DNA of 63,889 nt, counting the filler, from Kipferlia bialata (Eukaryota), in the NCBI GenBank assembly GCA_003568945.1. It is 6 parts of 6 records of this genome, joined end to end, with 100 filler letters (N's around TTAATTAATTAA, not from the genome) between each part and the next. Parts side by side here need not be neighbours in the genome. Positions count along the whole stretch, not along the records: positions 1 to 13,931 come from BDIP01000881.1; positions 14,032 to 27,959 come from BDIP01000882.1; positions 28,060 to 41,987 come from BDIP01000883.1; positions 42,088 to 56,013 come from BDIP01000884.1; positions 56,114 to 60,138 come from BDIP01000913.1; positions 60,239 to 63,889 come from BDIP01000946.1. One strand, written 5' to 3'. Within the stretch, counting starts at the first letter, position 1, and each line of letters begins with the position of its first letter. A model generated the notes under the pieces. It was not told where the DNA came from. It was given only the letters and a program-made list of their open reading frames with translations, and searched no databases. Below are positions 55 to 62,741 of this stretch, one piece after another. A program made the translations under genes and the position numbers.

Positions 55-420
55 TGTAAGAGGTAATTGTTAGATATATATCTTGAGATGGTGGGGTTGT
101 ATTAAGAGGTGGTGATACTGTGTGTAGTGCTGGGGTGGTACCAGGAGTGGATGGACACGTATATACTATACAGACTAATTCTACAAGACCCTGGACTAGA
201 TGTGTCTCCCTCTCTCCTCTCCCTCCTTGTATACACGTATTCATTGACTCAGGCTCAATGGCCGGACTGAATCTCTCTCTCTCCACCCTCCCTCAATCCA
301 TCTTTATACCAATTCAATGTACTGACACAGGATCCAACCCCAGACCTGGATATATACATACAGTGTAGATGCTACTTAGTATATATCCTGACTATGTATG
401 TTTACTGTATACTAATACAG

Positions 421-1732
421 GCCCCAACCCCTGAGCAGATCTGTGATACCTGTCAGTTCGAGGCTGAGATGGTGCAGGTATCTCTATATATACTATACAT
501 GAAAATATATATATTGTAAGAATGTACATATGTAAACATATAAAAAGTAAAGAATGACCATCTGTGACACCTGCCAGTTCGAGTGCAGGTATATAGAAAT
601 ACATGTATATTAACTATATCTACAGTATGTATCTCTATATATGGGACTGACACCTGTCAGTTCGAGGCTCAGATTGTGCAGGTGAATTGAGAGTATACAT
701 ATAGAGAGTAGCATATTAACCCCCCCCTCTCTCTCTCTCTCATGTCCAAAGCCCCTTATTCCAGACATATCATCTCTGACACCGATCGTGATGTATATAT
801 ATCCCCTAAGCCCTCGTTATTATATATATATATATATATCCTTAGCCCTTACTCCAGATCATCATTGAGGCTGAACATGATATCTTTCTCTCTCTCTCTC
901 TCCCTCTAGCCCCTTACTCCGGATCATCATTGAGGCTGAGCCCGTTATATTATATAGTAATATATATATACTATAGTATATGTATATGTCTATATATCCC
1001 CTCACTCATTTACTATAATACATGTATATGTGTATCAAGCCCCTCACTCCAGATCATCATTGAGGCTGAGCCCGTTATATTATATAGTAATATGTATATA
1101 CTATAATATATGTCTATATTTATATATCCCTCACTCATTTACTATAACACATGTATATGTGTATCAAGCCCCTCACTCCAGATCATCATTGAGGCCGAGC
1201 CTGATATCTCTCTCTCTTTCTCCCTCTAGCCCCTTACTGTATGTATATTTATATATATCTAACCCCTCACTCCAGATCATCATTGAGGCCGAGCCTGATA
1301 TATATATATATATATCCTAAGCCATCGTCATTATATATAAATTTATCTAGCCCCTCACTCCAGATCATCATTGAGGCCGAGCCCGACATGTCTGCAGATG
1401 ACGTCAGGGCACTGCTCGAGGACGAGTGCTACAAGACTATGGATAACGTATGTACATGTATATATATAGTGCTACTTGGCCAGGTATATAATATATATAT
1501 TATTCCACGAGACAATGGAGGGATTCAAGTGGACAGACATATATACTCTAGATACAAGGTTGACATCTCTCCAATATACATGTGTCAACTGTGATACTTG
1601 CCTCACCGAGTCCTACACCCTTTCCTACACCCTAACTCTCTCTTCTGCTGCACCCTTATTCCCAGGACCTGGGTATCCAGTACTGCATCAACCTCTACGA
1701 CCAGATGGTGGATCTGGTGGAGCAGGGTATGG

Positions 1733-1772
<40 letters not shown>

Positions 1773-2466
1773 CCTCACGTTCTATCAATGACATCCCACT
1801 GCTCTCTCACCCCCAGGCTACACCACCGACATTGTCTGTGAGCTCATGGGAAAGTAAGTGGAACATGCAGTTTAGTGAATGTATATACATAGTGGGTGAT
1901 GGATCATGTATCCTATGATACTGACAGTGTCTGTGAGCTCATGGGAAAGTAAGTGCATCATACATTAATATATATGTGTGTGTATCTATATATATGTATA
2001 TTGATAATGGGAGGTGACTCACCGATACTATTAGACTGATACCGACATTGTCTGTGAGCTCAAGGGAAAGTAAGTGCATACTCAAACATATTATTTAGTG
2101 AATGCATATACACAGTGGGTGATGGATCATGTATACTATGATACAGACAGTGTCTGTGAGCTAAGCGGAGATTAAGAACATACATACACTCATATATGAG
2201 AGTGGTTCTCATGTAGTGAGGTATGTGTGGGTGTCATGTATATGCATCGGTATGAAACTGTATTGTTCTGGTGTCAGTGCATTGTATAGTTACGTGATCA
2301 CAACCTCTACAATCGCATTGTGCCCATTTCCATTTCTGTAACTCCATTGACACCACGTGTGCTGGGAGCCATTTTTAGTCATATATTTACATGAACAGAT
2401 TGACATTACTAGTACGATTGATACATAACGGGGTGTATGTGTGTTACTAACGCCAGGTGTGCTTAG
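421..2466 (+). CDS. Saposin-B (SAPLIP) domain protein, multi-exon, 5' part probably upstream or off the contig
   Basis: Exons 421-477, 1364-1447, 1666-1726, 1817-1853 and 2457-2466 splice in frame to APTPEQICDTCQFEAEMVQIIIEAEPDMSADDVRALLEDECYKTMDNDLGIQYCINLYDQMVDLVEQGYTTDIVCELMGKCA*. This has the six-Cys saposin pattern (CxxC...C...C...C-x5-C). Confidence 0.85.
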
Positions 2467-11643: not shown

Positions 11644-13643
11644 TGCATCTCATATACCCCGTGCGATATAAGTAGCGACACCTACCAATACAATGATGGT
11701 CCTATACTCCCTCTTGGTAAGTGGGACCCTCTTTCTTAGTCATTCCCTCTCATTCACTTATCTAAACCCAATCTGTGGCGTGGTATAGAGCAAGGCATTG
11801 CCTATGGGTCAGATGACAAATCTCTCACGCCACTCCCGCTCCCGCTCCGGCAGTCTTCCCCACCCCCCATCTACTACAGGGTATACCAGGGCACCGTTGA
11901 CACCCAGGACACCGGCAGTCACACCTAGTCTTGATCGAACCAGATTCAGAGTGTCAGTCCCTCCAGCCGTTATATAGCCACTTAGGTCTCTCATTTCTTT
12001 CTGGTCGAGTTATTCATTCTGTGTGCATAGTTGGGTAGTGCTCCAAATGTATATATATAGAGAGGGTAGTTCCTCCTTTAGTATTGAGAACACCACTCAT
12101 TTAGTACCATAGAGAGAGACAGATGAATATGAGAGAGAGAGTCACTGACAGTGGCACTATTTGTGACACAGAGTATGAGCTGTCACTACACCCACATTAA
12201 TACACTAAACTCCTTTGATGCTTTCCCTCCCTCTCTTTCACGCGCAGTTCCGTATTGTAGTAGTCTAGAGTATATTCAGGTTGGTGGAATCATTAGATCT
12301 TACTCAACATCCCCCCCCGCCCCGCCCCTATTAGCCCCTCTTACACTCATGTTCCTTGGTATTCCAAGCTCTCTATTCAGACACTCTCCTTTTCGTCCCA
12401 TTCCCTATACATATGAATATTCATATGTTCAGATTCCACAACCCTGTGTATGTGCCCCTCTGACTCTCCCTTATCCCCTCAGACTGCCGGTCCCCCACCT
12501 GTCCCAATGTACACAGAAAGTGTGCACATACACAGTAAGGAAGAGAGAGAGGGAGAGAGAGGGGGAGAGGGGGTGCTGGGTGATGTTGACCCTGCTCACA
12601 TTGTGAATGTAGGTATATATGCCAGTGCTACACATATATACAAGATACATGATGTATATACAATACCCATGCACCATACATTCAAATCTCAGACTCCTCC
12701 TCCTGCTACACCATCTACAACAACAGGACATTGTACATTGAATAGTATACATACATTCACTCTAGTGTGTATATGTGTAAGTATATACTGTCTTGCTGTC
12801 TTAACCTCAGGCTCCTCCTCCTGGTACACCATCTACAACAACATGATCCTGGAGCCCACTGTACCCTTCTACGCATCGGCAATGCCATCAGGTTAGGAAA
12901 TAGGGGTAAACACTATATGTACTATATTGTCACATATATATCTGAGTCAGATTCTGACTGTGTACTGTATGAAAACTGTGAGGTTCTGGAGGATCTATAA
13001 CTCCCTCAAGTAGGAGTATTTATATATCCAGGCATAACCACTCCCGATCAGTTAGTTGGTTGGTGTGGCAATACAACCATGTACTACTCCTCCATCTGGA
13101 GGGACACAGGGGGGGGGATGACATTCAACTATAACTACGCGGTGAGTGGGAATCCAATGGGTTTGTGCCATGTCTTGTCAGCTATGTATATGTTCATGTG
13201 TATGTAGAGGTCTGACCCCAGCTGCACTTCAACCCCTGTGGCAAGTATGTGGATGCATGTACCTACCCAGAGCAACCACCTGTGGGCATGTACCTGTCGT
13301 ACATATCAATCACGCCAACATACTTCTGGGGAGGTATGGCCACATGCAACATATACAACAGTATATATATATATATCTGTATGGCCACGAGTATAGTTTG
13401 TAGTTCTCTTCCTTGAATATATGTGTATTATGTGTATAGATATGCCATCAGACCCCAAGTGGCACATGTCTGTCACGATTATTATAGATAGTATGTGTTA
13501 ATTAGTATATATGTCAGCGGTGTATACTGTAGTTTGCATCAACTATGGTACTATATATATGTGCATCGTGTATACTAACCGTCAGACCACAACTGGCACA
13601 TGTCTGTCACAGTGGACACACCAGCTGCCCCAGTCAACCATGG
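11644..13643 (+). CDS. Multi-exon hypothetical protein (ends uncertain)
   Basis: GT-AG-bounded exons include 12811-12891 (SSSWYTIYNNMILEPTVPFYASAMPS), 13032-13141 (ITTPDQLVGWCGNTTMYYSSIWRDTGGGMTFNYNYA), 13222-13244, 13271-13332 and 13585-13643. No family recognised. Confidence 0.4.
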
Positions 13644-13931: not shown

Positions 13932-14031
13932 NNNNNNNNNNNNNNNNNNNNNNNNNNNNNNNNNNNNNNNNNNNNTTAATTAATTAANNNNNNNNNNNNN
14001 NNNNNNNNNNNNNNNNNNNNNNNNNNNNNNN
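13932..14031. other. Artificial contig spacer (N44-TTAATTAATTAA-N44); the same spacer occurs at 27960-28059, 41988-42087, 56014-56113 and 60139-60238
   Basis: Identical 100-nt N runs with a six-frame-stop linker. Confidence 0.95.
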
Positions 14032-14084
14032 TCGCGACCCTCTGCTTATGAGACAAATGCTCTAACCAACTGAGCTACGGTGAC
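14032..14084 (-). tRNA. tRNA-Met (CAT), probably elongator; 3' end cut off by the contig edge
   Basis: The minus strand reads GTCACCGTAGCTCAGTTGGTTAGAGCA TTTGT CTCATAA GCAGA GGGTCGCGA. The D-arm/A-box and an anticodon stem-loop with CAT are present; the T-arm is lost in the gap. Confidence 0.85.
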
Positions 14085-15730
14085 GTTACGGCGGAATGAC
14101 ATGTATGATTACTGGACCGTTCGGTGACGAGTTGCCACGTGGAATATGTGAAAATACTAGATCACTGCACTTAGGTAGTGCAGTGACGACTTACGCAGCT
14201 GGAAATTCTATTGTATCAGGTACATTCTTTACAGAGCTACGGTGACGTGCTCTTAAGATGCACATATAGTACTGGACCATCACAACGCGCTAGAAATACA
14301 CAAGAGACAATGCAATGACCATCAGCGAAAGGCAGCTACTGAAGCAGCATGGGATTGTCTAACAATATATATGCCGAGCTACGATGACAATCTCTAAACG
14401 ACATGTAGGATAACTGGACCAATAACATCGTCATCGTCATCGTCATCGTCTGAGCTACGGTGACATTCGTCTGTCATGACATGTAGTATTATCATAATAC
14501 TGTGTTACTGGACACTGATAATCTCTGAAAACGGACTTCCAATCGTATACTGGCCCCATACTACACTAAAGAGAGTGTTACATTCAGAGTCATCACCAAA
14601 TGTGGTGTTCTTAGTACACATATGTACAAAGAACAATGTCACATTCTCAAGAGTAGATGCAACAGACGACTGTCAGCAGCAAAACTCATATTCAGTGGTG
14701 TATTCAGTGTCAGTATTCATATACTTCATATACAGTGTCTCAGGGTGACGTGTGACTGTCACGATGATTAGGACTGACTGTAGGTGATCACTGTCAAATT
14801 GTTCAATGATCCTCAACGTGAGGGCCTGAAGTGATATTGTGACAGTTAAAGTGTATACAGCTGACTATGTACAGGGGATCACCCTGTAGCGCAGTGTATG
14901 ATGAGAGAAATCTTCCAAGGCACATGTTGAGTGATTGATGTCCTCACTAGATGAATAGTATATGTTATATAAAAAGTATCAAAATAGATGGCCTCTCAGT
15001 CTCGAAGGCCGCCTGGTTCGCACTCCGCTCTTCGAGCTCATCGATGAGCTAGTATGGACTTGTCTGATGAATAGATTCCTATCGTCATCGTCATCGTCAT
15101 CGCCATATGTGTCTGAGCTACGGTGACGTGGTCCCATGCGGTATATGTGATAATACTAGGTCAACAGGCCTTGCAACGTTGTCGTGTTTCTTCCAGGAGA
15201 TACATGCAGTGGCACAAGCCAAAACAATACGGTAAAACTTCACAAGAGACAAGGCATTGAACTTCATGAGGCAGCTACTGAAGCTGCATGTACTTGCCTG
15301 ACCAATAGATATACATATCGTCATCTTCATCGCCATCGCCATATATGTACCTGAGCTACAGTGACATGGGGGCAGCGTGATATGTAGTAGTACCGAACCA
15401 ACACAGTAACCAGAGCATGATAGAGCATGGAGGTAAACGGTGATATGCCGCATATCAGATATGCGGGTGCCACCACATATAGTACTACTGGTACTGGTAC
15501 TGATACTGGACCTTAATTTACAGGCGTGGAGCTGTCAATGTACCATATGATGTACCCAGAGGGCCAGTGGATCCAAATCCAGAGCCTTTTGGGCCAGAGG
15601 TAAAACTACACCCGAGACAGGGCAATGAACATCAGGAGAAGACAGCTACTGAAGCAGCATAACTTGACTGACCAATTAGTATACCTGTTGTCATTGTCAC
15701 CATATGTGTCTGAGCTACGTTGACGTGTTT
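14085..15730. repeat. Degenerate repeat region upstream of tRNA-Met containing copies of the tRNA 5' end
   Basis: (t)gagctacggtgac-like copies start at 14234, 14376, 14451, 15114, 15352 and 15711. A second module gagaca..gcaatga..cagctactgaagc.gcat occurs at about 14304, 15245 and 15614. Confidence 0.8.
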
Positions 15731-22400: not shown

Positions 22401-25400
22401 TGTTGGAGAGCAGGGAGAGGTTGTTGGACACGCCTCCAATGCTCACACTAGAGGTGGTACCAGTACCAATGTAGAGTGCAGAGCCACTGGAATCCAGAGA
22501 GAGAGCGGTGTTGGCAGTGTCAATGGAAGTGCCCACCACTAGAGGCACATTGATGGTAGCACTGCCATTGAGCAGCTCAAAGCTACCACTACCGGCCTGC
22601 AGAGTAGCGTAGTGGCCGGCAGCATCTGTATCTCCCATGGAGAGAGAGACAGTGGCGAGGGTCTGCAGTGGGGACAGCGTGTACTCGCCAGAGGTGTGGG
22701 AGAGAGACCCTGCTGCAAAGACGAACCCGTCTGAGCTGGGACCCTCGGGGTAGAGGCCGAGGGTAGGAGAGAGGGTGGAACTCGTTATGGCAGCTGCATC
22801 GGTACTATCTCCAAAGTACATGGCACCATTCGATGAGAATAGTCCATCAGAAGAGGTCAGAGAGCCCACAGTGGAGGCACCAGAGACAGAGAGAGAGCTG
22901 GGGTCAACGGGATACTAGGTAGACAGTATATATATCAGTATAGGGTGAATAGTACTGACCTCACTGTAACGGAGTCCATGACAAACTCCCCAACTGAGAG
23001 TGCACCAGTCACAGACAGATCTCCAGAGACAGAGGCATCTCCACCTGTGGTTGGTGATAGTGATTATATATATATATATATATATATAGTAACGCCTTCT
23101 TCGTTTCACCAATGAGTATATGCAATAAGTACGTTGAGGCATCTCCACCTGTGGTTAGTGAAAGTGTATGATAATACCACCCGACATATATAAGAGTGCA
23201 CTGCCATCTATATAGAGAATATGAGGCAGAGGCATCTCCACCTGTGATTAGTGGACTAAACTTCTATCTGAAAACGAAGCAATGGCTGTGATTCACTCGA
23301 CCACAGAATATGCTACCATTGAAATAGATTGGTAGTAGTATACGAGGAAGAGAGAGAGAGAGAGAGAGAAAGAGAGTACCTACTAGCAGGTCCCCATCTA
23401 ACGAGGAGTCACCACCCACAGAGAGAGAGGAAGGAACACTCTTGGACCTGAGATATTAGAAAACTACGCGCTTTCAGGATGAAGCTACACGATATCAAAA
23501 CAAAGAACAACATATCCTTCACGATGAGTAACTATACCTTGTCTGAGAGGGTGTGCCTATCTGGACAGACTGGCCAGAGGGGGCAAGGGTTACAGGGCCA
23601 CCTAGAATGAGACGGAACTATTAGTACCAGATATATGTCTGGTAAAGATACCATAGACATTTTCAATTATAGGTAGAGAATGTGTACCTAATGGGTCCAG
23701 TGTGATTCCGTTATATGCCTCTAGTACATCACGTAGGTATCAATATGCAATCATGCTAAGTTGATAATCGATACCTAGTGGATCCAGTGGGATTCCGTTG
23801 TCTGCCTCCAGTCCCTATCTATATCTATCAACATATACATACATGTATATACTCAAGAGTCGAGTAAGGATATACTAACCTAGTGGATCCAGTGTGATTC
23901 CGTTGTCTGCCTCCAGTGTGAGGTCCCCCTGTGCCTGGTTGGTGATGGTCGCAGCTGGGACAAATGTGCCTAATGGTGAGATACTAGTGGTGGTAGCAGA
24001 GAGAGCGTCAAGCAGTTAGAACACACAGTTTCGTCAAATATCACATGTCTCATCGTTTGACCCTATACGTATATATAGTGTGAATTCCTGATGACATGTG
24101 TATAGATGGCACCTGACTCATCATTGGACCCCATCTGGATGGTGCAGTGGTCATCACCATCTAGCCTGGTGTTATATGTATATAATCACTTCCTAATGGG
24201 TATATAATACTATAATAGATTATATATTGTACATTCACCTAATGTATGGTATGTTCCTTGTGTTGACAATCTCCAGAGAGGCACTGGGTATCTAGTGTAT
24301 GTATAGTATAATTCTATTAGGATTAGTATATATAGTGTGTATACCTGATGTGTGGCATGTCCCTTGTCTTGACAATCTCTAGGGAGGCACTGGGCAGAGG
24401 GGTGCCGATACCCACACACTCAGAGTCTGAAGGGTAAATATGTATAAACTACCTATGTGGATATAGGAAGAGAGATAGGGAGAGAGGGCCGATACCCACA
24501 CACTCAGAGTCTCGGCATAAGTATGTATACACTTATTACATAAGCTTAGCTAGGAGAGAGAGAAAGAAAGGGAGGGAGAGAGAGAGAGATGAAACCCACA
24601 TACTCAGAGTCTGGGCATTTGGTATGAAAACACATTCAATTCTCTATATGAGCGGTAATTATATGGAGAGGGGAATATGAACCATAATTATATAGAGAGG
24701 GGAATATGCCGGACGGGCATTGTCAGTTATATACCCGGGTGACATACTGACAATGAATACCGGTATAAAAAAGATAGTATACCTGGTATGACAGTGAGTG
24801 TTTGTTCACCTCTCCTGAAACACATAGAGAAGGACGTATAGAGTATATATTCTATATATAAATATATATATACCTGGAATGACTGTCAATGTCTGCAATC
24901 TCCACTGCCGCACTGTCATCACTGACAGCCAGAGTATATAGAATACGTATATACATATACATTAGTATATATACTATATTATATACTTATATACCTGGTA
25001 TGACCGTTAATGTCTGTGCAATCTCCACTGCCGCACTGTCATCACTGACAGCAAGGGTGTAATATACACATATATTTATATTAGTATATATACTATATTA
25101 TTTACTTATATACCTGGAATGACTGTCAATGTCTGTGCAATCTCCACTGCCGCACTGTCATCACTGACAGCCAGGGTGTAATATATACTCATATATACAC
25201 GTAAGTATATGTACAACAGTAAACTTATAGAAATATATACCTGGAATGACAGTGAGTGTCTGTGCAATCTCCACTGCCGCACTGTCATCACTGACATCCA
25301 GAGTATATATAATACATATATATACATTAGTATATATACTATATTATATACTTATATACCTGGAACAACCGTTAATGTCTGTGCAACCTCCACTGCCGCA

Positions 25401-26783
25401 CTGTCATCACTGACATCCAGTATTTTGAATACATATATATATACACTAATGTATTAGTATATATATATTGTATATATATATATACCTGGTATGACAGTGA
25501 GTGTCTGTGCAATCTCCACTGCAGCACTGTCATCACTGACAGCAAGGGTGGCCAGGACAGACGACATGGACAGAACTGCAACAGCCCCTGGTATTAGACA
25601 AATCCAAAAATAGATACACATATATATTATCATATATACTGAGACAGCAAGGGTGGACAGAAGAGACGACATGGACAGCACCGCAACTGCGCCTAGTGTA
25701 AGAGTCCGAACATACATATATATATATACTGATACTGCCACTGTACCTAGGCCAATTGAGACCACGAGCAGCACCAGTACAACTGCCAGGGTGACACACA
25801 TGCACTGCGATGTCTTGCTAGAGACATGTGAAGTGTTAGTAGGAGTGTAGGATGTGGTCTGCTTGGTGGTCTCTGGGTACTCGGGAAGAGGGGCAGCCAC
25901 ATAGACCTATTATGAGTTAGAATAGAGACTATATGAAGATAGGACGAGTCATAGTATATATATACATAGACAGTATACATATCACATACAAACCTGAGAA
26001 GGAATTAGAGATACCAGAGGCACTGTAGTGACTGGGGGCTGGGGAGGCATAGATCCAACATAGTATATATCTACCTATCTATCTATCTATCTATATATAT
26101 AGGTATGTGTGTGTATATAAATCTACCTGTGGCACTGTAGTGACTGGGGGCAGGGTGGCTGGGGAGGGCATGGGTCTGGGTCTGGACCCCTTGGCCTTGG
26201 ATCCTTGCAGTGAGTACACATCTATTCTATACAAACATATATACGTATATATATAGACATACATATACATTGGAGAACATGGACCCCTTGGCCTTGCTAC
26301 CTTGCAGTGAGTGTACACTGAATAATACACCAGGGTATATGCATATATACACACTCATATACATACATATCCTTAGGGTATGGGTCTGGGATTCTGTACA
26401 CACATATATATACCCTTCTTTCTGGCCATCGGCATGAAAATTGTAAATACTCTCAAATAGTAACGACACAATGGTATTTATGTATAAATATAAATATATA
26501 TATATATATATCCATACCCTTCTTTCTGGCCATCGGCATGGGCAGTGATGAATTCCTACAAACAATACAACTGATCACTCTTTTAGTTATACGAATAGTT
26601 ATAGCTCTAGTTCTCACCCTTCTTTCTGGCCATCGGCATCGGCCTTGGAAACAATATGAAAATAATAGACTTGCATATGAGTACAGTATCAGCATCATAT
26701 AGTACATACCCTTCTTCCTGGCCATGGGCATTGGCATGGGCATTGGGAGTGGAGATGATGCCGCTGAGAGAGGGGCCTATACC

Positions 26784-26814
<31 letters not shown>

Positions 26815-27690
26815 TAGTATGTATGATCCTTATTAATCTCACCCTTCTTCCTAGTCATCGGCATTGGCATTGGAAGTGGAGATGATGCAGCTGAGAGAGG
26901 GGCCATTGGAAGAGCACGACCAACACTAGGGGTCAGTCAAGGTAGAGAGACTCTGAGAGTGTATACACTATAGTATATATATATATATATATATATATGC
27001 ATAACATTGGAAGAGAATTATAGATTATAGAAAACAGTCCAATACTATGGGGAGAGAGTGCTTCTGCCCATAGTAACTACATATCTAATATCTTCATTAT
27101 CTACACATAGACTCTAACCTGGGTGACGCTCTGTTGTTTCCTCTCCCCACACTGGGTGAGTCTCACACTCTTCAATAGAAATATTGTTCATATAGTATAA
27201 AGTATAGTATAAATAGTATTCATATATTGTATGTATATATATACATGTACTCCTGACTGTTTTGAGTATATTCCTACCTGGGTGAAGCCCTTTCCCGTCT
27301 CTAGTGAGACTCATAGTATATATAGTACACACATTTCTATACACACACACATATATATATAGATACCAACCTGGGTGAAGCTCTGCTGTTCCCCCTGCCC
27401 ACACTGGGTGAGGCTCTGTTGTATGGTACTGTGGTGACAACAGCTCTCCTATTGTAAGAGTGGATGTACCTATATATATATGGGTGGGGATACAAAATAT
27501 TTCCATTACCATTAATGACAGGTATATTTATATATATACCTAGTCTGCACAGGTGGCAGGGGACTAGACACAGGCAAGGCCACGGGCTTAGGCATAGGAA
27601 GGGGGAAGGGCATGTTGCCACTTTTGCCCTTCTTGGCACTCTGCTTCTGCACTATCTGGCTTTGGATAGTGAAGACATCATCCCTGAAGT
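16405..27690 (-). CDS. Giant (>2,400 aa) type II membrane protein with a beta-strand-rich, acidic, tail-fibre-like ectodomain; 5' end probably incomplete
   Basis: The terminal exon of about 6.5 kb (ORF 16405-22869, acceptor near 22898) is S/T/G/V/D/E-rich with repeats. Small upstream exons encode a Pro/Lys-rich N-terminus (PLPMPMPMTRKKG), one hydrophobic segment (CVTLAVVLVLLVVSIGLGAVAVL, about 25550-25800) and the motif VGIGTPLPSASLEIV. Confidence 0.8.
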
Positions 27691-27915
27691 GAGCTGCGTA
27701 TTTACATTTGCATGTAATAACTACTGTGATTTAACAATCTGACTCTACTAGTAGAGAGTAAGACATCATCTGTGGAGTGAGGTACGAATGAATTATTCCT
27801 TACATGTATATAACTGGGAGCGATGCCTGTTCAAAGAGATAGGGATACAGTATCAGTATCAGTGAGAGAGTCGTTCCAACTCCTGTTTAATGGGTATGGA
27901 GATGGAGAGAGAGAT

Positions 27916-27959: not shown

Positions 27960-28113
27960 NNNNNNNNNNNNNNNNNNNNNNNNNNNNNNNNNNNNNNNNN
28001 NNNTTAATTAATTAANNNNNNNNNNNNNNNNNNNNNNNNNNNNNNNNNNNNNNNNNNNNGGCGTCTTTTTTTTGGATCCCCCCCCCCCCCCCCCCCCCCC
28101 CCTCACCCCCCAG

Positions 28114-28565: not shown

Positions 28566-30365
28566 TTACTGCTGTGGGATGGGCTCAGTCTCAGCCTCTG
28601 CCTCTGCCTCTATCTCTGCCTCCTCCCCCCTCTGTGCCTGCAGTCTCTCCCTCTCGTCCCCAGGCAGCAGGGCCCAGATGGCATCGGGGATGGACGGGCG
28701 CTCCTTGGTGCCCTGGGGTCAGAGAGGAGGCAGAGGAGACACTATGCACACACACGTGAGATCAATACCAATGCATCTCTGCCATACCTCAGCATACACA
28801 TTCTCCCAGAAGAGCGACAGCTTGTCCAGCTCTGCCGCCTCAAAGGCTAGGATGGAGTCGCTGGTATAAGGGACAGGTAGGTATACACATGCACCTATCC
28901 TCATATCACTCTATACACAACACCCATACCGAGTCTGGCTGTACCAGCTGTCTGCCCAGCAGTACAGCTTGGCGTGGTATGTGACGAAGTTGTTGAACAT
29001 GGCCTTCTGGACACTGTTCTTGGCAACCCTGAGGATAAGGGTGAATAGATATAATATACATGAGCATGTATAGACACTGACACTGATACTGTTCTTGGCA
29101 ACTCTGGCGGTGAGAGGATGGGTATATATATATATATCATGAGTGACTATGTCGTATATATGCATGTCCCCTCACCTTCCGAGCCCCATGACCTTGAGCT
29201 CAAACTTGACCAGCTTGTACACAGTCACGCAGGGGGTGCAGGTGGACTGGGGTGGGGGGTGACTGAGAACTATGAGGATATGAATATGGCCATAGTATCT
29301 ACTCACCTCCCACCCCTTAGTGCTGACTGGCACTCTCTGGGCAAGCTCAGGGGTGGTGAAGGTCTGCCTGAGGTAAGGGTAACGAGGAGAGAATAATAAT
29401 AATACTATGAACCTGGTACTGGGTGATGGAACAATCCCAATACGAGTATCTACACCGATAGGAAACATCACTCAACTAATCGAACGAAACAGAGATAATG
29501 ACACCACGTACTTGCTGGGGTCTATGTCGTCCCCGTGGTGGGATGCGATGTCGACAGTGTATCTCTGCACAGTGGCTAGCTCGGCCTGGGGGTCAGGGGG
29601 AGATGCGTGTAGGAAATGATACATACATATTACATATAGTGACATGCCTCTGACAGGTTGAATGGGTTTGCCGTGTCTCTGTCCTGGCCCCTGTCCCCGT
29701 CTATCAGTCTGGTGTGCAGCTCAAAGGTCAGCTTCGACTTGAGGAAGGGGGAGCTCAGCTTGTTCACTGGGGTGAGGGGGAGGAAAGTGCACCACTAGAA
29801 TATGTAATGTATATACTTCCTCCGTACCGACGTGTGTGGATGCGTTGATGCAGAACTCGTTGACGAACCTGGCCCTGGCTGGCATGATCTTGGTCACCTT
29901 GCCTAGGGTGAGGGAGAGAGGCTAGATGGGAGTGGGGGTCACTTTAGATAGTGTACAGAGTAACATGTGAATGCACTGACTCACCCTTGGGCAGGTGGAT
30001 CCTCTTGAATGTAAGCCGGGCATCCCTGTCCTCGTGTCTGATGCCAACCTGGGGGAGGGGCGGGGGAGAGAGTATGCATAGAAGAGTGTGGGGTTAAGGG
30101 GTTGGGGGGAGGGGGGCTATTCAGAGCGTCATTAGCTGGTATGAATTGACCGTTCTCCCCTCTTTTGCAATCAATCCAGTATACACAAGCATATAGAGTG
30201 CACTAGGCATACACATGTAGCTAACTGACTCACATTGACTATGGGCTCGATCCCCTCTGCACTGGTGCTGTCCTCAAGGGAGGCCCTGGCCACCATGTAG
30301 TGGTGCCCCCTGTCGGTCTCAGCAGCGGTCAGGGGGAGCGTGATGGCATACTGGAACAGATACAT
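28566..30365 (-). CDS. Phosphatidylinositol transfer protein (IP_trans/PITP family), multi-exon
   Basis: The N-terminus MYLFQYAITLPLTAAETDRGHHYMVARASLEDSTSAEGIEPIVN matches the PITP pattern EYRI.LP....EY.....YMVA..S.E....GEGVE. Later exons read TVYKLVKFELKVMGLG and NNFVTYHAKLYCWADSWY (cf. F..FHRQ.FCW.D.WY). Confidence 0.85.
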
Positions 30366-33500: not shown

Positions 33501-36500
33501 GTCACCCCAATCTCGTAGATTTGTAGTTGTATTAACATCTCATGTATGTCCTCACCCCAGGCCGGTCACCGGTCCGAGAGGTCCCAGCGGGAGAGGGTGG
33601 AGATGGAACTGGGTCACATGAGGTAGCAATATTTCAAGTACTGCATTTACAGTACCCCCCCCCCCCATCTCACCCCCCAGGTCGACTGTGACCACGCTGC
33701 GTGGTGATCTGTCTGGTGCGACCAAGGAGAGAGACAGCCTGAGGGGGGAGAACGAGGGGATCAAGGCAGACCTCCAGATGCTCAAACAGAAGCTGGACAC
33801 GTACGTGCAGTAATATACAGAATGATATATAGCAAGTATTGGATACCCTCTTCCACCTCCCTCACCCCCAGACTAGGCATGGAGGCCGAGCACCTGCGGC
33901 ACGAGAACAGTCTGTTGGTGTCTAGGAATACGAGTCAGACTGAGACCCTAGTTAGTGTGAGGACAGGGGGGGAGACCACACTCGACACACTCCACAACAC
34001 GTGCATAGAGAGGGACGGTCTGATAGAGAAGGTCATGAGACCCCTTGCTGAACTAGCAGCACCAGTCTTTGTCTCACCATTTACATCCCCCTCACCCCCT
34101 AGGTAGCCAAGGTTGAGGCCGCCCATGCCGCCCTATCCTCCGAACTGGCAGACGAGAAGGACAAGCACGCAGCCCAACTCGCGCAGAAGCAGGTGGGGCC
34201 AGTGGTTTCATATATCATTGCCAGATGCATACTTGCGATATGTTCCCCACCCCCCCATCCTCACCCCCAGAGTCTCTTGGCCAGTGAACAGCTGAGGGTG
34301 GCCACGCTCACTAAGGTAGGATGTTGTGACATTGTCAAACTGTTGAAACAGAGAGGGTCGTAATGTGTTGTCATCTCACCCCTTCAGGACCTGGCCGAGA
34401 TGCGGTCCAGACCCCCTGTGCAGAAGATAGTGTACATGCAGGCCAGAACAAGGGTCGAGAGCGCAAAGGTATACTCATGTATATATGTATACATACACCA
34501 TTAGATTTGTTTTGTTTGTGTACATGTGCTATACTTTGCTACCTCCCCCATCTCTGTCTGACCCTTAGGAGAAGGCCAAGCCCTCCACCCCCCAGGCCAA
34601 GAAGGGAGAGCCAACACGAGATGCCTCAGTGCAGACCAGACGACCAATGGTGCCCAGCGCGTCAACAGCACAGCTCAGACAGCAGGTATGGGAATATGGA
34701 TATACTATTCTAATTATTTTCAATATGCAGTGACATGACCCCCTCTAACCTTCAGGCCCAGGACAAGAAGAGGGAGAAGGAGAGGGAGAGAGAGAGGCAG
34801 AAGGAGAGGGACGAGATGGCCAAGGAGCGGGAGAGGGTGGCCAACCTCCTCAACACAGCAGAGATAGCCAAGGAGGCTGGGGAGATTGCACTCGAGGAGG
34901 CAAAGGCTCTGCAGGTGTGTGTTTATGTATGCTAGTATATACATATACACATATATTTTTATATTTGTATACATTTGTGTGTGTATACCTCCCCTCCCCC
35001 TGACCCCCAGGCGGATGTGTCTGAGAGGGAGGCAGACATGGAGGCAGACATGCTCAGAAAGACACAGGTACCTGGGGTTGGAATACTATGCATCCTTACT
35101 GATATTTGGTCTCACACTATTATGCATACCCTCACCCCTAGAACCTTGAGGCAAGGGAGAGAGACATGGCGTCTGAGAGACAGCGGCTGGAGGCCAGACT
35201 CGCCTTGGTTGAGAAGGAGAGGGAGGGATTCAGGGAGCAGGACAAGCTGTCGAAGGCCCAGTCTCTCAAGCAAATGGAGGGAATGACGTCTCCTAGGTAT
35301 GGTGCATCATATGTGTATACATATACTGTACCATGTCTATTACTGTACTTGTATATCTCCACCCCTCTCTCACCCTAGGACTGTGAGCAGACTGCAGCGT
35401 GACCTACAGGCAGCCAAGGACGCCCTGTTACAGGTGGGTACATCCTACTTTATACATACACTCATGATGCCCATATATACCCCCCCCCCCTCCCCTGACC
35501 CCAGGCCCAGCAGGACAAGCGGGATGTGTCAGCCGAGCTGGACTCTGTCCAGACCACATCCTCCAAGGACCTGGCCTCACTCGCAGCCAGGCAGATGACA
35601 AAGATACAGGTGGGTGGTATATTAGTATATTTTCATTGTAAGGCATGTGCTAACCTTAGGACCTCCGCAACTCCCTGACCGCTGAGCACGAGGGTGTCAT
35701 GACACAGAAGGACAAGGAGTACAAGGAGAGGGAGAAGGTACGTGGTGTGTGTGTATGTGTGTATGTATAAGTGTATCATAATAGCTACTTCATCGCCCCC
35801 ACCCCCCAGGTTGCTGAGATGGAGAGGGATGCCGAGATCAGAAGAATGAAGGAGGAGCATTCACTGATGAAGCAGGGCCTGGTCAGGAAGGACAGGTGGG
35901 TGGGAGTGTGTACATACATTCGAGATATATATGTATCTGTAGCATGTCTCCCTATTGTATATATATATATACCTGTCTGACCCCCAGGGAGCAGGCTGCC
36001 ACCATCGCCTCTCTGACCGAGGAGGTGTCCACACTCACAGCAAGGGCAGACGGGTTCAGGTGGGGTGGGGTGTTTGCGGGGAGTGTATTCTCTATGAGAT
36101 AATGAAGTGAGGGACAGTATTCATTACATATGTGTGCAAGGGCACACGGGTTCAGGTGGGGGGGGGGGGGGGGGATACGTAGAATGGATAGTATAAGAGA
36201 AGGTNNNNNNNNNNNNNNNNNNNNNNNNNNNNNNNNNNNNNNNNNNNNNNNNNNNNNNNNNNNNNNNNNNNNNNNNNNNNNNNNNNNNNNNNNNNNNNNN
36301 NNNNNNNNNNNNNNNNNNNNNNNNNNNNNNNNNNNNNNNNNNNNNNNNNNNNNNNNNNNNNNNNNNNNNNNNNNNNNNNNNNNNNNNNNNNNNNNNNNNN
36401 NNNNNNNNNNNNNNNNNNNNNNNNNNNNNNNNNNNNNNNNNNNNNNNNNNNNNNNNNNNNNNNNNNNNNNNNNNNNNNNNNNNNNNNNNNNNNNNNNNNN

Positions 36501-38024: not shown

Positions 38025-39445
38025 CATATGTATGCAGCCTGTGCACCTTGAGGGCCTTGTGGGGCAGGACCATGGCAGCCCTCACCACAGTCTCATCCTC
38101 GACATGCACATCCTAAGGGGTCAGGGACAAGGGTGGAGCAAGACAGAGGGTGTGGATGAGAAGAGGCGTACTCGTTGCATGTCACCAACTTCTCATACTG
38201 CACAATATAAATACAACAGTAGTCATCCGTGTCCATACCTCCCCCAGGACCGACATGTCACACACATGGGACCACCCCCCTAGGCTGCAGTAGGAGCCTA
38301 CGATGCTGGGGTCAGTGGCAGTATCAGGGTATGTAGTGTACACTATCCATACAATCACCCACCCCTAACTATCAGGGCCAGTGTCATATATATATCATAT
38401 ATATATACCTCCCCCCACCTGTGTGTGACGCATAGTGGTATAGTTGGAGAGTTGTATAGATGTGTATATGTACCAACATACTTATCTGTCACGCATAGGT
38501 TTCTGTATGTACATTTATATGGGTATGTATATATATATGGGTATATACATATATATGGGTATAGTATATATATGGGTATATATGACCCATGTGTATGTGC
38601 ATACCTGTCTGTGACGCATGCATGGCCACCCACCGTGGTGCAGGGCATGATGACAGACCGACGCACCCTGGCACCCTGGCATCAGGAGCATAGGTGTATG
38701 AGGTGTAATAGGTGTCATGGTTATCATGGGTATATCAAGACAGGTATGGATAGAGAGGGGGAGGGGATGATACAGCGACAGACATGTGAAACAGACGCGT
38801 GTACAAGGGTCAGTCGTATACACTGATAGATACACATTGGCATATGCTGACCCGCCCCCTGATACCCATCCGTGTTGCATACCTTGACCACCGTGGCCTG
38901 TCTCCCCAGCGTGGCGTAGGGCCCGATGACGGCACCTGGGGGGTAGGGGAGATAGGATGGGTATGATGGGCATGATGGGTATGATAGGTATGATGGGTAT
39001 GGTCTGAAGGGCATGTCAGGGGATATACTGGTACGAGGTCGTCCATAAACACGCCCATAGACACGCTCCCAATGAGGCCAATACACATATATACGTGTAC
39101 CCATACCCCCACACACCCACCCACCTGGCTCGACCCTAGCCTCGGGGTGTATCAGACAGGGAGGGATGACTCTGAAGGTCCCATCGCCTGCACTGCTAGC
39201 GACATCATGGCCGTCCTGGGAGTATGAGTATCATAGTATGAGTATCATAGTATGAGTATCATAGTATAGTCAGAGACATGCACACACACACAGGCATGGA
39301 TAGAGTATACACATACACATTGGTACCTCTCCGTTGTCTGTGTCCCTAGGCAGTATGGCACCCTCTCTCAGGTGGTTGTGCTATGGTCAGACGGCATACA
39401 CACTTGTACACACACTCAAATACCTATATATATATATATATGAAT

Positions 39446-39480: not shown

Positions 39481-41860
39481 ACTGTAACACCACTGCCCTG
39501 ACCTGGCTGTCGTAGTCTAGCTGCATCTGCACGGCGGCCAGGAAGTCATCTGGCTTGCCTATGTCCTTCCACATCCCTGGGGTGATGATATGGTATGGTA
39601 TGGTATGATATGATGATGATATGATGATGATGGTATGATATGATGATGATGGTATGATGATTGTATGATAAGGATATGGTATGGTATGATGATTATGGTA
39701 TGATATGATGATGATATGATGATGGTATGATATGATGATGGTATGGAGGGGACACGCACAGGGTATGTGTAGTGTATACACGTGACACTCCTACCTCTGG
39801 CACGTGGAGATATACCAAACCAGTATCAGTATCCAGTGAAGATAGGCATAGCACTCAGTAGGAATAGCCCTATATAAGAGATTATCAGACACTGAGTGTA
39901 TGTGCAACAAGCCCCCCCACCCCCACCCCTACCTGTGTGCTATATATATATATACCTGTGTGCTGGTAGCAGTACATCTCCCCCTTGGCAGCCACCCTTG
40001 GGAATATCTCTCTCTCCATGCTGGTGGGCTTGAGCTGGGGTGGGGGACGGGTACTTGTATACACATACAGGGAGTTGAGGTCCCACCTTGCCCATGTCCA
40101 TACTTGTACATGTGTACATCCGCATATAGTATAGGTATGTATATAATGATACCTTAACCATATCCAGCACTGACGGCTCTATGATGTACACACCCCCATT
40201 GATGAGGTTGCCAACATACGTCTGGGGCTTCTCGACAAACCTAGGGGGTAGGAACATACCAACACAACCAACAACAATCATGATAGCAGATACACACTCT
40301 GCCAGCAGAAGCACAAAAGTAGTGGAACTACTCAGTATACAAATACACTTCTCTATTAATACTATTGACATGCAATACAGGGGGTTGAGGGGACCTAGAG
40401 ACTGTCTTGTTCTGCTCAGAGGGTATACATACATACATATATACACATCCATATATACCTAGACACTGCGTTGTCCTCGTCACACACTATGACGCCAAAG
40501 CGGGACGGGTCTTCGACACTGGTGCCCATGATTGATATCATACCTGGGGGGGGAGGACACACATACACGACAGGGAGGTACATGTGTATACATATACATG
40601 TACATATATATAAATGAGAGAGACACGGAGGGCCCCGGCTGTCCTCACCTCCCTTGTCCCTGTGGAACTGGATCATGGCCTCGAGGGGGTAGTCGCAGAT
40701 GACATCGCTGGGGTCAGGGGTGCATGTAGTATGGGGCATATGATATATATATATATATGATATATGATATATATATATATGAATGGACATGGGAATATGG
40801 GATACAGGCTGTATATGATATGATTCAGGTATAGGACATGGGACATGGCATCAAGACGACCAGAGTGACAATCCACATCCATGCACCCTTGGCCCCATCA
40901 ATCTCAGAATCAATCTCAGAATCAATCTCAGAATCAATCTCAGAATCAATCTCAGAATACATCCCTGTACCTGTCTCAATACATGTCTCAATATATACCA
41001 CCACACCTGTTGCACACAAAGAATGGCTCTGCCTCGGCCCCGTTCTCCGGCATCAGGAGGGGTCTGGCCAGGGCTAGGGGGCCTCCTAGGGATTGGGAGT
41101 ATGGGGAGAGAGTCCAAAGAGGATCAGAGGGGAGAGAGGGATAAAGAGAGAGAGAGAGAGTCAGCAGACGGTGTGGATAGCACCCAATGGCACAGTGACA
41201 CTTTGTCTGAATATATATAAATATACACACATGATCTGTATATACATATATATATATATATATATGCATACATACCTGTCCCTAGAGGCTTTGGCTCGAT
41301 AGAGGACACAATCTTGACATTGTACTGGTCCTCCCACTTGCTGACATACCCTGCCGTAAGTACCCTGACATACAGTATCACAAGACAATGGGTGATTAGG
41401 CAGTGATTATAATATATACATGTATATATAGAGAGAGAGACAGATGATAAGGCGTGTTGAGTATCGTACACACGAGTGAGTGATATACAACAGTGAGGTG
41501 GGATATATGGACCGAAACATAACCAAGTGCCCCTGTCACTGTCACCCACATAGAGACATAGAGACATAGATAGGATACGCAGAATGAGGGACCGATGGTC
41601 ACACTCACCCTGCAGGGTCTGGGGGCAGTAGGACACGGCCAGGATGATGTCGGTCACACCCACACCGGCCAGGGCAGCTATCTGGAGCTGGGGTGGGTAA
41701 CGGGGGGGGCAGCATGGGTCCACTCAATCATAGTATAGTCATATACATACGATATAGCATAAAGTGTATACTGTATAGTATGCATACTGATACCTCAATC
41801 ATGGGTGTGTTGCAAAACTCAATGAGGGGCTTGGGGACAGTGATGGTCAGGGGGCGTAAC
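37640..41860 (-). CDS. GMPPB: Mannose-1-phosphate guanylyltransferase (GDP-mannose pyrophosphorylase); first exon(s) missing at the contig edge
   Basis: Exons read RLRPLTITVPKPLIEFCNTPMI, DIILAVSY, EPKPLGT/GGPLALA, EPFFVCNSDVICDYPL, VEDPSRFGVIV, RFVEKPQTYVGNLINGGVY, TSMEREIFP and GMWKDIGKPDDFL. The hexapeptide tail ends ...VLPHKALKESIWEAQIVM*. Confidence 0.93.
39580..39745. repeat. Intronic (GAT/GGTAT/ATG) compound microsatellite
   Basis: Visible run of gatgat/ggtatg units inside a GMPPB intron. Confidence 0.85.
40897..40958. repeat. Intronic 12-bp minisatellite (atcaatctcaga)x5
   Basis: Perfect tandem copies in a GMPPB intron. Confidence 0.9.
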
Positions 41861-42217
41861 CTGAGGTCATAGAAGTGGAGAGGCCTGGGTCTGGGTATAC
41901 ATCTATATACACCCATACACATATATACCGATACAATGAGGAGAGCAACGGGGGGGGGGGGGGGGAAATTCATAAAATTTGTTTTTTNNNNNNNNNNNNN
42001 NNNNNNNNNNNNNNNNNNNNNNNNNNNNNNNTTAATTAATTAANNNNNNNNNNNNNNNNNNNNNNNNNNNNNNNNNNNNNNNNNNNNTGACTGACAGTCT
42101 CTCTCTCTCTCTCTCTGTCTCTCTCCCCCCCCTCTCTTACCCAGACACCGACTCCCTGTCTGACAGTCTCTCTCTCTCTCTCTCTCTCTGTCTCTTTTTC
42201 TGCCCTCTCTTACCCAG

Positions 42218-42771
42218 ACACCGACTCCCTGTCTGGCACCACCGACAGTGCCGCAGCAGCCACAGCCATATCGACAGGGCAGAGGGTGCAGAACGGGAGG
42301 TTGGTATATACTATATCCCCTCCAGTTCATGTCTTCCCCAATTGTGTCTGCTCTATGTACATTGCAAAGTGTGTCTATCAAGTGTCTGACTCCTGTCTCT
42401 GATACTGGACTCTGACCCTTCAGACTGAACTCCTCTGTGCAGTACCCCCAGGACTATGAGACACTGTTGCAGTACTTGACAGACACAGAGGGGGGGAGGT
42501 ATATATGTATAGAGAGAGCGTATATATAGTACATAAAGGGAGAGACTATTACAGTACCTGACAGACACAGAGGGGGGGAGGTATATATACATATGTAGTG
42601 TAGTATAATACTTCACATATATGATCAGAATGGTTGAAAGAGAGATACTTTTACAGTACCTGACAGACACAGAGGGGGGGGATCAGGTGAGTTTATGTAC
42701 TGACCCCAACTTGGTAGTTACTTACTGGCAGAGACTACCTCACCGGTGTTATCTCCAAGACAGACGTCATC

Positions 42772-47286: not shown

Positions 47287-47428
47287 GACACCCTGTTTGA
47301 CATACATTATTATATTATATTATATTATAATACATTATTATATTATATTATATTACTATATTTTGAAGTCATAAAGAAGGGATTCTCATCACTAAATAGC
47401 CAACTTCCATTTGTATCCGAGAGTAGAT

Positions 47429-56013: not shown

Positions 56014-56117
56014 NNNNNNNNNNNNNNNNNNNNNNNNNNNNNNNNNNNNNNNNNNNNTTAATTAATTAANNNNNNNNNNNNNNNNNNNNNNNNNNNNNNN
56101 NNNNNNNNNNNNNCCTT

Positions 56118-56151
<34 letters not shown>

Positions 56152-60238: not shown

Positions 60239-60293
<55 letters not shown>

Positions 60294-62741
60294 TATATAC
60301 ATATATGTACCCACCTGATATGGCTGTGTTCCACATCCTGCTCTGCCTCTCCCGGGGTGTCTCCTCTATGTCCACAACCTCATCCTCATCACACCTGGGG
60401 GGTGAGGGAGAGTACAATGGGTGCAATACCTATAGACATAGATGGACGGTACTACACTCACTCTTCGTCTGAGAGGACTGGCACCAACAGGCCATCTGCC
60501 ACTGCCAGGTGGGACGGCTGGACATGTCTGGGGCTGACTGAGGGTGAGATACATATACATCTACATATATATATATCAAGATAGATAGAGAGAGAGGGGG
60601 CAGGACATGTCTAGGGCTGACTGATGTTAGAAGGCGAGAGAGAGGGGGGGGGGGGAGAGAGAGGGAGAGGGATACTTGAATGAGACAGTGTATGTATACA
60701 CTGCCTCTTGGCACGTACCGTGACAGACCTCACCCCTCAGACTGTACACATACTCTCCATTGCGGGTGGAGGCTGGGGGTGAGGGCAAGAGAGAGAGAGT
60801 GTGTGTGCGTGTATGTGCGAGAGGTATGTACCTGTGGCGACTGCCCCCCAGGGTATGGTCTTGACATCGATGGGGTCAGACAGGAAGTGCAGGTTGCTGG
60901 GTCAGAGGGGGGGGGGAGAGAGAGAATAGAGTGACGATAAATTACTATATGCATATTGTTGTGGTGTAGGGAAGAGTGTATACTAATACTTGTACATATA
61001 TGTTTATACTCAAATGCCCATCTCTTGTGGTAGTGTGGGGGGTGCAGAAGTGTATATATACTATATATATATACTATATATATACTTCATTCGTGTATAT
61101 ACCTCTTGTGGTAGTGTGGGGGATGGAGGGCAGAGGGGTGCAGAGGGGACACCATGGTCTTGAGGGGGTTCTCCCAGATCTGGAGGGGTGAGGATGGGAG
61201 TAGACCCAGAGGGTTAAAGAGAAAGGTGGAACCAGATAGCAATTGAGAGTACATGGAGTGGAGAATGCAAGGAGAATCGGAGAGGGAGAGACCCCGGCTG
61301 TCTTGTATACAGAGACATTAAATATATAGTGAAAGAATGACACATAGTATAGATTCCCACCCACCCCGTCTGTCTTTGTCACCACCACCCTCATGGCGTG
61401 CAGTCTCTCTCTCTCTCTCTCTCTCTTGATAGTAATATATATATATATACATATATATATATATCCACCCACCCCATCTGTCTTTGGCACGACCACCCTC
61501 ATGGCCTGCAGTCTCTGTAGGATGGACCGGACCTGAACCTCAGGCCGCAGCAGACGGCTAGGGGTACTGGGGTGAAAGGGAGAGGGAAGGAGAAATGTAT
61601 TATGGAGCATAGAATATACACTCAGTATTCCATATATGACGCTGTACCTGGCGACTGTGTCTGCCTCCCCCTCTGTCAGGTCTGCATACACGTGGCACAC
61701 ATCCTCAGTCTGGGCATGAGAGAGAGAGAGAGAGAGAGAGAGAGTATACGTGGCACACATCCTCAGTCTGGGCATGAGAGAGAGAGAGAAAGAGAGAGAG
61801 AGATACCACACCTGCTCAGCCGGGGAGTGTATGAGCCTACTGGCCCCCTTGGCCCTCTCTCTGCTGCTGTGTCTGTGGATAGAGGCAGAGAGGGAGGTGG
61901 GGGAGCGGGCTCTCTCTCTCTCCCGCAGAGAGGCCGAGAGGGACATGGATGACCTTCTGCTGTCCCCCCTGTCCTTGCCTCTCCTGCTCACTCGCAGACT
62001 CAGGGACCCAGAGTGGGGGGAGCGGCTCGAACCGCGGACCTGACGGTGGAGGGGTGGGCGGGAAAGAGAGGGAGAGAGAAAGGGAGAGGATGCATAGGAA
62101 GTATGAGAGAGCGATGTCCAGGGCAATCACACGCTTGCAGAGAGAGTAATTACCCTATCAAGCTCACAAGAGAGGGAGGAGAGAGAGGATATTGTACTAA
62201 CCTGGGACAGAGAGAGGGCGTTTCCCTGTGAGAATGACATGGCATGTGGCGGGTCCAGCTGGGAGCTGTGGGTGGGGTGTGCGGCCTGCGTGGGGGAGTG
62301 CGGGGCCAGTATGCTGTGTGTGTCGTCTGGGTCGAGGTGGGAGGTCTCCAGGTGGGACGTGTATATGCCGGACATACTCAGGGCAGACATGCCAAGACCA
62401 CTGTACTCGGCACCCGGCATGTGCTGCGAGGCAGAGTGCGTGGACAGAACTGAGGCGCTGTGGTCAGAGAGTATGCTCCCGCCATCTGGGTCACCCTCCC
62501 GAGGCCGCCCTAGGCTTTGCGGCACATCAAACACCGTCTCGGGTCCCAGCGATATAGGCTCACCCCACTTGATCGTGGACGAGTTGGCGCCGAAGGGGGC
62601 TCGTGGGGTGACCGCTGGAGCTGTGTTCTCAGTCTCTGCCTCCCCCCAGTCAACGTGGTCCCTCCCTCTCTCCCCCTCTGCCACTTGCGGCACTTCGCCA
62701 TGCCGCCCCGGGGTGCGGTACTGCACGAAACTGCTATGCAT
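57597..62741 (-). CDS. HEAT/ARM-repeat-like alpha-solenoid protein with a Ser/Arg-rich N-terminus (assumes both sides of the 60139-60238 spacer are one gene)
   Basis: The long Leu/Ala-rich helical exon at about 58700-59670 reads RARALSLLASFLRAL, LLINAAQCFTLLVNIAPG. The N-terminal exons 62203-62741 and 61812-62040 are low-complexity. Confidence 0.55.

Follow-up and report, generated by a model that had tools for sequence, protein, structure and literature searches.

Introns in a 63,889-nucleotide (nt) stretch of the genome of Kipferlia bialata, an intron-rich free-living fornicate (PMC5874029), contain short copies of the edge of the neighbouring exon together with its splice site, here called echoes. 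This stretch (the window; assembly GCA_003568945.1) consists of pieces of six unrelated contigs joined by artificial N-linkers (13932-14031, 27960-28059, 41988-42087, 56014-56113, and 60139-60238), so that adjoining pieces are not genomic neighbours, and it has an internal N gap at 36205-36808; all statistics below are for this window. We tentatively read the echoes, with confidence that stops a little short of even, as skipped duplications of the type known as "mirage" minisatellites, made and rewritten by exon-anchored recombinational repair that was often templated by the other allele. The copies themselves are likely without function.

Hand-built models of 12 genes provided 148 introns and 296 adjacent exon edges. 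Eight models are open through every echo-bearing exon, while four (64 introns) retain frame errors and served as denominators only, so the intron total is approximate. At a calling threshold of score at least 12, an intronic copy was present at 24 of the 296 adjacent edges (14 donor and 10 acceptor), compared to 0.32% when introns of other genes were searched, which bears out the original prediction that introns hold exon-edge copies with their splice sites. The predicted polarity, with donor-edge copies downstream of the live donor and acceptor-edge copies upstream of the live acceptor, also held; the opposite arrangement was found at 1 of 173 edges, as a near-whole-exon copy. At score 12 there were 587 GT/AG-anchored exon-side matches in near pairs versus 31 in pairs from different contigs, and at score 20 there were 330 versus 0; the near counts include non-echo repeats. 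An iterative search plus five extra terminal cases gave 52 hits. Four of these were dropped before counting (three cross-matches between two similar exons of a fibre-like gene and one mid-exon hit), which left 29 donor and 19 acceptor echoes, 13 to 65 nt long, in 28 families. Further echoes seen by eye at 318, 4883, 33072, 38411, and 38475 were below the threshold and were excluded from the statistics. Tests against non-adjacent exons of the same gene reached score 12 in 7 of 1,040 cases, and the two strong ones were short-exon overlaps or a near-whole-exon copy. The nearest spacer was at least 35 nt in all 28 families (P = 2e-7 for uniform breakpoints).

About one intron in seven (20 of 148) bears echoes. 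These introns are longer than the others (median, 236 versus 95.5 nt), as expected if echoes lengthen introns, and 10 of the 15 introns of at least 250 nt have them. Since echo-bearing introns hold 6,861 of the 21,434 modelled intron bases, echoes contribute substantially to intron growth here. As had been stated, each of the four 14-kb pieces and the final piece contain them; the 4-kb piece has none (0 of 7 modelled introns). Rather than being evenly spread, echoes are clustered by gene (permutation P = 5e-5), occupying 9 of 12 introns in the fibre-like gene, 4 of 7 in the last gene, and 2 of 4 in a saposin-like gene; two genes are echo-free (0 of 18 and 0 of 35 introns). The long genes at 2773-7029 and 45498-52394 have 53 introns with no scored echo, and microsatellite makes up ~1% of their intron bases; in echo-rich genes the share is 11 to 20%. 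This echo-free, microsatellite-poor state suggests regional differences in repair or recombination. At the echo junctions, microsatellite was found in 12 of 48 cases versus 21% elsewhere in the same introns, so there is no junction-specific enrichment. GA/CT runs at junctions (9 of 48 versus 9%) are a weak lead.

The copies are genomic where this could be followed. Two sequencing runs from one sample, a DNA run (X1) and an RNA-like run (X2, whose RNA status is a guess), were compared with the window over 22800-26328. An unbranched 1540-nt X1 unitig at 23384-24923 agrees with the window at every position and covers seven scored echoes as well as part of an eighth; its depth is 490 compared to 443 to 476 in its neighbours, as expected of single-copy sequence. 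In a six-unit array (24783..25420), unique X1 tiles have depths of 404 to 481 and one two-copy tile has a depth of 835. Mis-assembly of alleles as tandem copies therefore seems extremely improbable, even though the contigs are from short reads only and X1 is possibly the window's own source; no variant letters are listed in X1 over 22800-26328 at an 85% cut-off. Of the five GT-AG joints in X2 contigs, four span echo-bearing introns, and a loose end additionally links 26204 with the exon at 26843. All five echo-bearing introns bridged in this way use the outer live sites and skip 10 scored echoes, in contigs that have depths of 3 to 5, cover the fibre-like gene alone, and lose rare isoforms.

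This pattern bears on whether echoes might be functional alternative micro-exons or regulated alternative splice sites, which would explain the strong splice signals they keep and the synonymous bias described below. Skipping in all five bridged introns argues against such a role, leaving room for minor use, and public predicted proteins agree with the echo-free models (residues 55-367 of the fibre-like protein and residues 1-533 of the phosphatase). The opposite splice site is also absent, as had been predicted: a good acceptor lies near 1 of 29 donor echoes (background, 4%) and a good donor near 0 of 19 acceptor echoes (background, 14%). We consider the idea very unlikely. Former micro-exons with lost acceptors were rejected, there being no acceptor remnants and no bias toward 3n lengths, as was recursive splicing through AG/GT, since most acceptor echoes have no starting GT in their sequence. 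In 25 of 48 cases the echo's own splice site equals or exceeds the live site in score, and GT/AG is kept at the aligned position in 41 of 45. For this organism a reduced spliceosome, with 87 of 174 proteins, has been described (PMC6679479). Whatever the origin of the echoes, strong splice sites that are ignored in a short-intron organism offer a ready test of splice-site choice, and extrapolation from 20 of 148 introns would give thousands of them.

The original prediction knew of no description of such an arrangement, yet one has been published as the mirage minisatellites of amphioxus, found in Adh3, the globins BflGb6 and BflGb9, troponin C, and PGBD5 (PMC3087553, PMC3902484). As those papers describe them, mirages share with the Kipferlia echoes tandem copies across an exon-intron boundary, a position in the adjacent intron, and occurrence at both 5' and 3' boundaries; in both systems most units keep AG/GT and normal splicing is undisturbed, and the signs of exchange between units described in amphioxus may have a counterpart in Kipferlia. 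The differences begin with the host, a metamonad protist with 20 of 148 introns affected. BflGb6 units are 81 to 100% identical as wholes, whereas in Kipferlia only 7 of 48 copies, in 5 of 28 families, have a flank that is recognisably related; the Kipferlia spacer has a floor of 35 nt, compared to amphioxus Adh3 units of 10 to 72 bp. The possible synonymous excess in Kipferlia, beyond what a dead copy should give, is undiscussed in the amphioxus mirage passages. The Kipferlia copies thus show four mirage features, and we class them as a variant rather than as plain mirages because whole-unit similarity fails in most families. Within genes, partial duplications tolerated by splicing also recall internal gene duplication as an intron source (Gao and Lynch 2009, cited in PMC3087553); unlike there, no new intron position or exon is seen, and existing introns lengthen. 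Searches of open-licence papers turned up no description of these copies in any protist, Kipferlia included.

The differences between echo and exon had been described as often silent. The codon pairs named in support are all present, but they were a selective sample: of the 118 distinct differences 59 alter the amino acid, 4 of 5 gaps cause a frameshift, and the echoes at 12694..12728 and 13452..13476 have only non-synonymous differences in the scored part. With one echo per family there are 39 synonymous and 39 non-synonymous differences, and the ratio of non-synonymous to synonymous rates (dN/dS) is 0.35 (kappa 2), so that a value of 1 is rejected (P = 5e-6) and the predicted synonymous bias is real. 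The premise behind that comparison, that a neutral tandem duplicate keeps no amino-acid identity, does not hold here. Because the dead copy changes everywhere and the live exon adds silent changes only, a dead-versus-live comparison should, by reasoning, give ~0.5 under neutrality. An earlier state of the live exon, offered as a special source, is therefore the ordinary null, and it fits the single-echo families (0.50).

The ratio of four-fold to zero-fold differences, which does not depend on kappa, gives a somewhat stronger test against that null. In a clonal lineage only one copy per site is live at once, so the ratio should not exceed 2, a ceiling that comes from reasoning and assumes equal mutation rates. 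Differences were found at 30 of 158 four-fold sites and 33 of 576 zero-fold sites, a ratio of 3.3 (base-stratified, 3.5; P = 0.025). Six simulated nulls passed through the same detector (250 replicates each) had median ratios of 1.5 to 1.8 and 99th percentiles of 2.5 to 3.1, all below the observed value. CpG decay was rejected as the source of the differences (10 of 119), and the bias survives removal of CpG-prone sites (ratio 4.2, P = 0.04); the CpG observed/expected ratio of the whole window is 0.42. Dropping any one gene leaves ratios of 3.1 to 3.5 (P = 0.02 to 0.135). Multi-echo families have a dN/dS of 0.29 (P = 0.016 versus 0.5; kappa 2), and echo-versus-echo comparisons give 0.30 (P = 0.046). 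No stops occur among 56 amino-acid changes, which are milder than chance (BLOSUM62, P = 0.02), and 19 of 41 echo-private changes are synonymous versus 26% expected (P = 0.004). The synonymous excess beyond the ceiling of 2 (ratio 3.3, P about 0.01 to 0.03) is suggestive, and a ratio above 2 would therefore point to two alleles selected at once or to selection on dead copies.

Echo flanks point in the same direction. A relation to the live flank is recognisable in only the 7 echoes and 5 families given above (p<0.02), and at that level the rest are indistinguishable from unrelated introns, so that whole-unit head-to-tail similarity including the intron part is lacking in most; exon parts are ~90% identical. 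In self-copy simulations, a related flank was detectable in 79 to 99% of cases at a divergence of 0.12, the value implied by zero-fold sites, and in 34 to 92% at 0.21. Divergence in the exon part shows no correlation with that in the flank (rho = -0.06, P = 0.70). TA-rich flanks can reach 91 to 96% identity where exon parts differ by 9 to 10%, and in one pair of units a 93% match in the flank goes with a 10% difference in the exon part. Echo 23775-23812 (minus strand) matches its exon edge at 37 of 38 positions beside an unrelated flank; in the saposin-like acceptor array, units 905-1034 and 1035-1163 form a head-to-tail pair of the classical kind. Units of the six-unit array combine synonymous states of Leu, Thr, Val, and Ile codons in mosaic fashion, and at neighbouring Leu and Thr codons three such states occur. 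The four-gamete test fails for this array in 3 of 10 informative site pairs. Such failures occur in two of the four arrays with at least three echoes (3 of 10 pairs and 1 of 1 pair); recurrent mutation could also produce them.

Foreign introns next to coding-constrained differences are also what paralogue donors, that is, gene copies elsewhere in the genome, would be expected to leave. A search with the fibre-like protein found only itself (1 hit among 7990 candidates), as did one with the last phosphatase exon (1 of 3434), and over the fibre exons X1 has no listed variant letters at the 85% cut-off. Echoes always adjoin their own exon, with the 7 of 1,040 non-adjacent matches noted above, and paralogue donors are in our view highly improbable. 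The earlier proposal that echoes were copied from another constrained version of the exon thus fares unevenly: paralogues are disfavoured, and the allele option has modest support with no second allele found.

The same pattern occurs at the edge of a transfer RNA (tRNA), a Kipferlia feature unlike the mirages described from amphioxus (PMC3087553, PMC3902484). The 5' part of a tRNA with a CAT anticodon, cut by the contig edge, lies at 14032..14084 on the minus strand (Rfam RF00005, 30.1 bits); an ARAGORN tRNA search found none, and this truncated tRNA came from Rfam. Upstream of it, at 14231..15724 (minus strand), are six copies of its first 13 to 16 nt with no splice site, six in 2.3 kb compared to 0 in the other 61 kb. 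The copies differ at 5 of 90 positions within the edge and at 46 of 147 across the aligned flanks, and they sit inside diverged units of 76 to 660 nt. Since no splice site is involved, these copies suggest a DNA-level process. The units at 14231..15724 may be a decayed tRNA array or a short interspersed nuclear element (SINE)-like head.

A close rival, possible though on balance doubtful, is that the echoes are plain mirages: boundary self-duplications would decay neutrally while the live exon drifts at silent sites alone, slippage would erode TA-rich flanks fast, and conversion from the live exon would refresh the exon parts, with no other allele involved. This predicts the polarity and a dN/dS near 0.5, as seen in single-echo families, and it is consistent with the non-synonymous half of the distinct differences, the frame-shifting gaps, and the related flanks in 5 of 28 families. 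Dinucleotide runs near 21% of echo-intron positions, versus 6% in other introns, fit it too. It does not readily explain a ratio of 3.3 beyond the simulated 99th percentile, an echo-versus-echo value of 0.30, the surplus of synonymous echo-private changes, or the uncorrelated exon-part and flank divergence.

Several results weigh against an allelic source. The one-echo-per-family dN/dS of 0.35 differs from 0.5 at P = 0.076 (kappa 2) or 0.17 (kappa 4), and its bootstrap interval (0.26 to 0.54) includes 0.5. The 18 single-echo families equal the plain null (0.50, kappa 2), the split into multi- and single-echo families was chosen post hoc, after seeing the data, and the tests of synonymous excess overlap and the excess is modest. 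With the fibre-like gene excluded the ratio holds at P = 0.135. Among variants common to several echoes, 12 of 14 are synonymous, which earlier states of the exon also predict. The low flank detection is also reproduced when indels are as frequent as substitutions at a divergence of 0.21 to 0.3, and at +3 to +20 and -3 to -12 flank identity exceeds background, so many flanks are homologous but eroded; allelic introns too diverged to align, next to a synonymous divergence of ~0.1 to 0.2, are incompletely explained. A single origin is probable for the six tRNA-edge copies. The lack of listed variant letters in X1 means that no second allele was seen over the region compared. For a second isolate, an exact 21-mer search of metagenomes gave 0 matches, and for the fibre-like protein there were 74 pattern matches with none confirmed, neither of which is evidence of absence; a search for literature on sex in Kipferlia gave nothing usable in the sources it returned.

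A smaller rival is that echoes recombine into the live exon and that a large population selects against harmful echoes, a second-order purifying selection. This conversion load would explain a ratio above 2 without sex, the zero stops, and the mild amino-acid changes, and it would fit echo splice sites that often match or outscore the live ones, their retained GT/AG, and the array mosaic. However, 91% GT/AG retention is what 6% neutral decay yields, frameshifting gaps persist, constraint has no clear trend with distance from the junction, and the unrelated flanks are left unexplained. We regard it as improbable.

Allele-templated repair, the reading that we favour, is partly supported, by modest statistics (P about 0.01 to 0.08, overlapping tests) and by structure; the evidence for copying partly from other alleles is suggestive. 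In one-sided invasion repair, one end of a break is joined by homology and the other is joined without it. Here, a break in an intron would be repaired one-sidedly, with an end invading through exon homology and copying across the intron into the neighbouring exon, where 13 to 65 nt would be copied before rejoining by microhomology. Such exon-anchored copying would by its nature put donor edges downstream and acceptor edges upstream. Whole-exon copies, or copies less than ~35 nt from the live site, would upset splicing and be purged. A sister-chromatid template would give a classical head-to-tail mirage, presumably the minority, and the other allele would give an exon part with mostly silent allelic differences attached to that allele's diverged intron. 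Units might then decay neutrally and exchange exon parts by gene conversion, and the spliceosome would take the outermost sites, probably through exon definition.

The repair inventory reported for the group fits this mechanism: metamonads are described as having no nonhomologous end joining, and fornicates as having no Rad51A while keeping two Dmc1 paralogues (PMC8516963, section 8), and Dmc1 is tolerant of mismatches (PMC8682777, PMC7809202). In humans, most minisatellites mutate through interallelic processes (PMC2599865), and the proposed process resembles their conversion in that units would be gained or rewritten from the homologous chromosome. In contrast, human minisatellite conversion and one-sided invasion, as described, involve pre-existing repeats or engineered breaks, and a Kipferlia unit starts from an exon edge that is present only once. 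Were the excess allelic, the values 0.19 and 0.057 would translate into a synonymous diversity of about 0.08 to 0.11. A further and unlikelier step is to regard K. bialata introns as a fossil record of other alleles, in which mismatch-tolerant Dmc1 repair deposits the edges of conserved elements (exons and tRNAs) alongside them. That would imply cryptic sex in a free-living fornicate with no heterozygosity seen, together with a synonymous diversity near 0.1, and would require exon-definition splicing despite short introns. If alleles were the templates, past recombination and population diversity could be read from one genome in a group in which sex is an open question, and mirages in polymorphic marine animals might have the same cause.

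The echoes are spread as follows, beginning with the plus-strand ones of the first piece. The saposin-like gene has two donor echoes (560-583 and 648-681, within 560..681) of exon 421-477, five acceptor echoes (858..1295; AG kept in four) of exon 1364-1447, and three donor echoes (1920..2169) of exon 1817-1853. The acceptor echoes with non-synonymous scored differences belong to exons 12811-12891 (12694..12728) and 13586-13643 (13452..13476). All those of the fibre-like region are on the minus strand. They comprise two acceptor echoes (23136..23241) of exon 22965-23044; two donor echoes (23688..23812) of exon 23880-23969, within one X1 unitig and skipped by an X2 contig; donor echoes at 24046 (exon 24113-24165) and 24239 (exon 24345-24426), within 24046..24288, with an X2 contig skipping both; and two acceptor echoes (24478..24610) of exon 24345-24426. 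Exon 25486-25587 has the six-unit donor array at 24783..25420, whose flanks are homologous in most units, and an acceptor echo at 25643..25690 (4 synonymous and 2 non-synonymous differences), skipped by an X2 contig. Exon 26127-26203 has a donor echo (26019) and an acceptor echo with a TCC/AGC pair (26280), together spanning 26019..26296. Four donor echoes (26414..26777) belong to exon 26843-26925, which an X2 contig links directly to 26203, two (27119..27291) to exon 27371-27469, and a weak acceptor echo (27754..27770; score 12) to exon 27540-27683.

Farther on, an acceptor echo at 29085..29102 (minus strand) is in a gene whose motifs suggest that it is PITP-like. That gene has a probable GC-AG intron at 29586-29647 (minus strand), its donor being the sole one that keeps the frame open. 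Donor echoes on the plus strand belong to exons 31594-31781 (31840..31884; TCC CCA versus TCA CCC) and 35988-36059 (36136..36155). On the minus strand, the GMPPB-like gene has two short donor echoes (38411..38503) of exon 38605-38675, below threshold and outside the statistics, and a decayed donor echo (40395..40418; 1 synonymous and 5 non-synonymous differences) of exon 40459-40543. The alkaline-phosphatase gene (42145..42761, plus strand) has acceptor echoes at 42145 and 42732 and donor echoes at 42540 and 42642, and the last contig's gene has four echoes at 60599, 61022, 61365, and 61745 (60599..61767, minus strand).

The fibre-like gene itself (16405-27683, minus strand) encodes a 2502-aa protein with no Pfam family and no relative among the 7990 candidates; a membrane segment is predicted by eye near its N-terminus. 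It has one 6.5-kb exon and two small exons that are mutually similar, and its long open reading frame at 16405-22914 is 100% identical to a public K. bialata protein. The last phosphatase exon matches a K. bialata alkaline phosphatase, the only one of 7 proteins that Pfam named. Short tandem repeats that lie wholly within introns, their units 3 to 28 nt long, were seen at 39594-39746, 40897-40956, 39227-39264, and 47306-47355. In the acceptor consensus of the modelled introns the branch point lies near the AG, as is described for Giardia and Spironucleus (PMC6679479).

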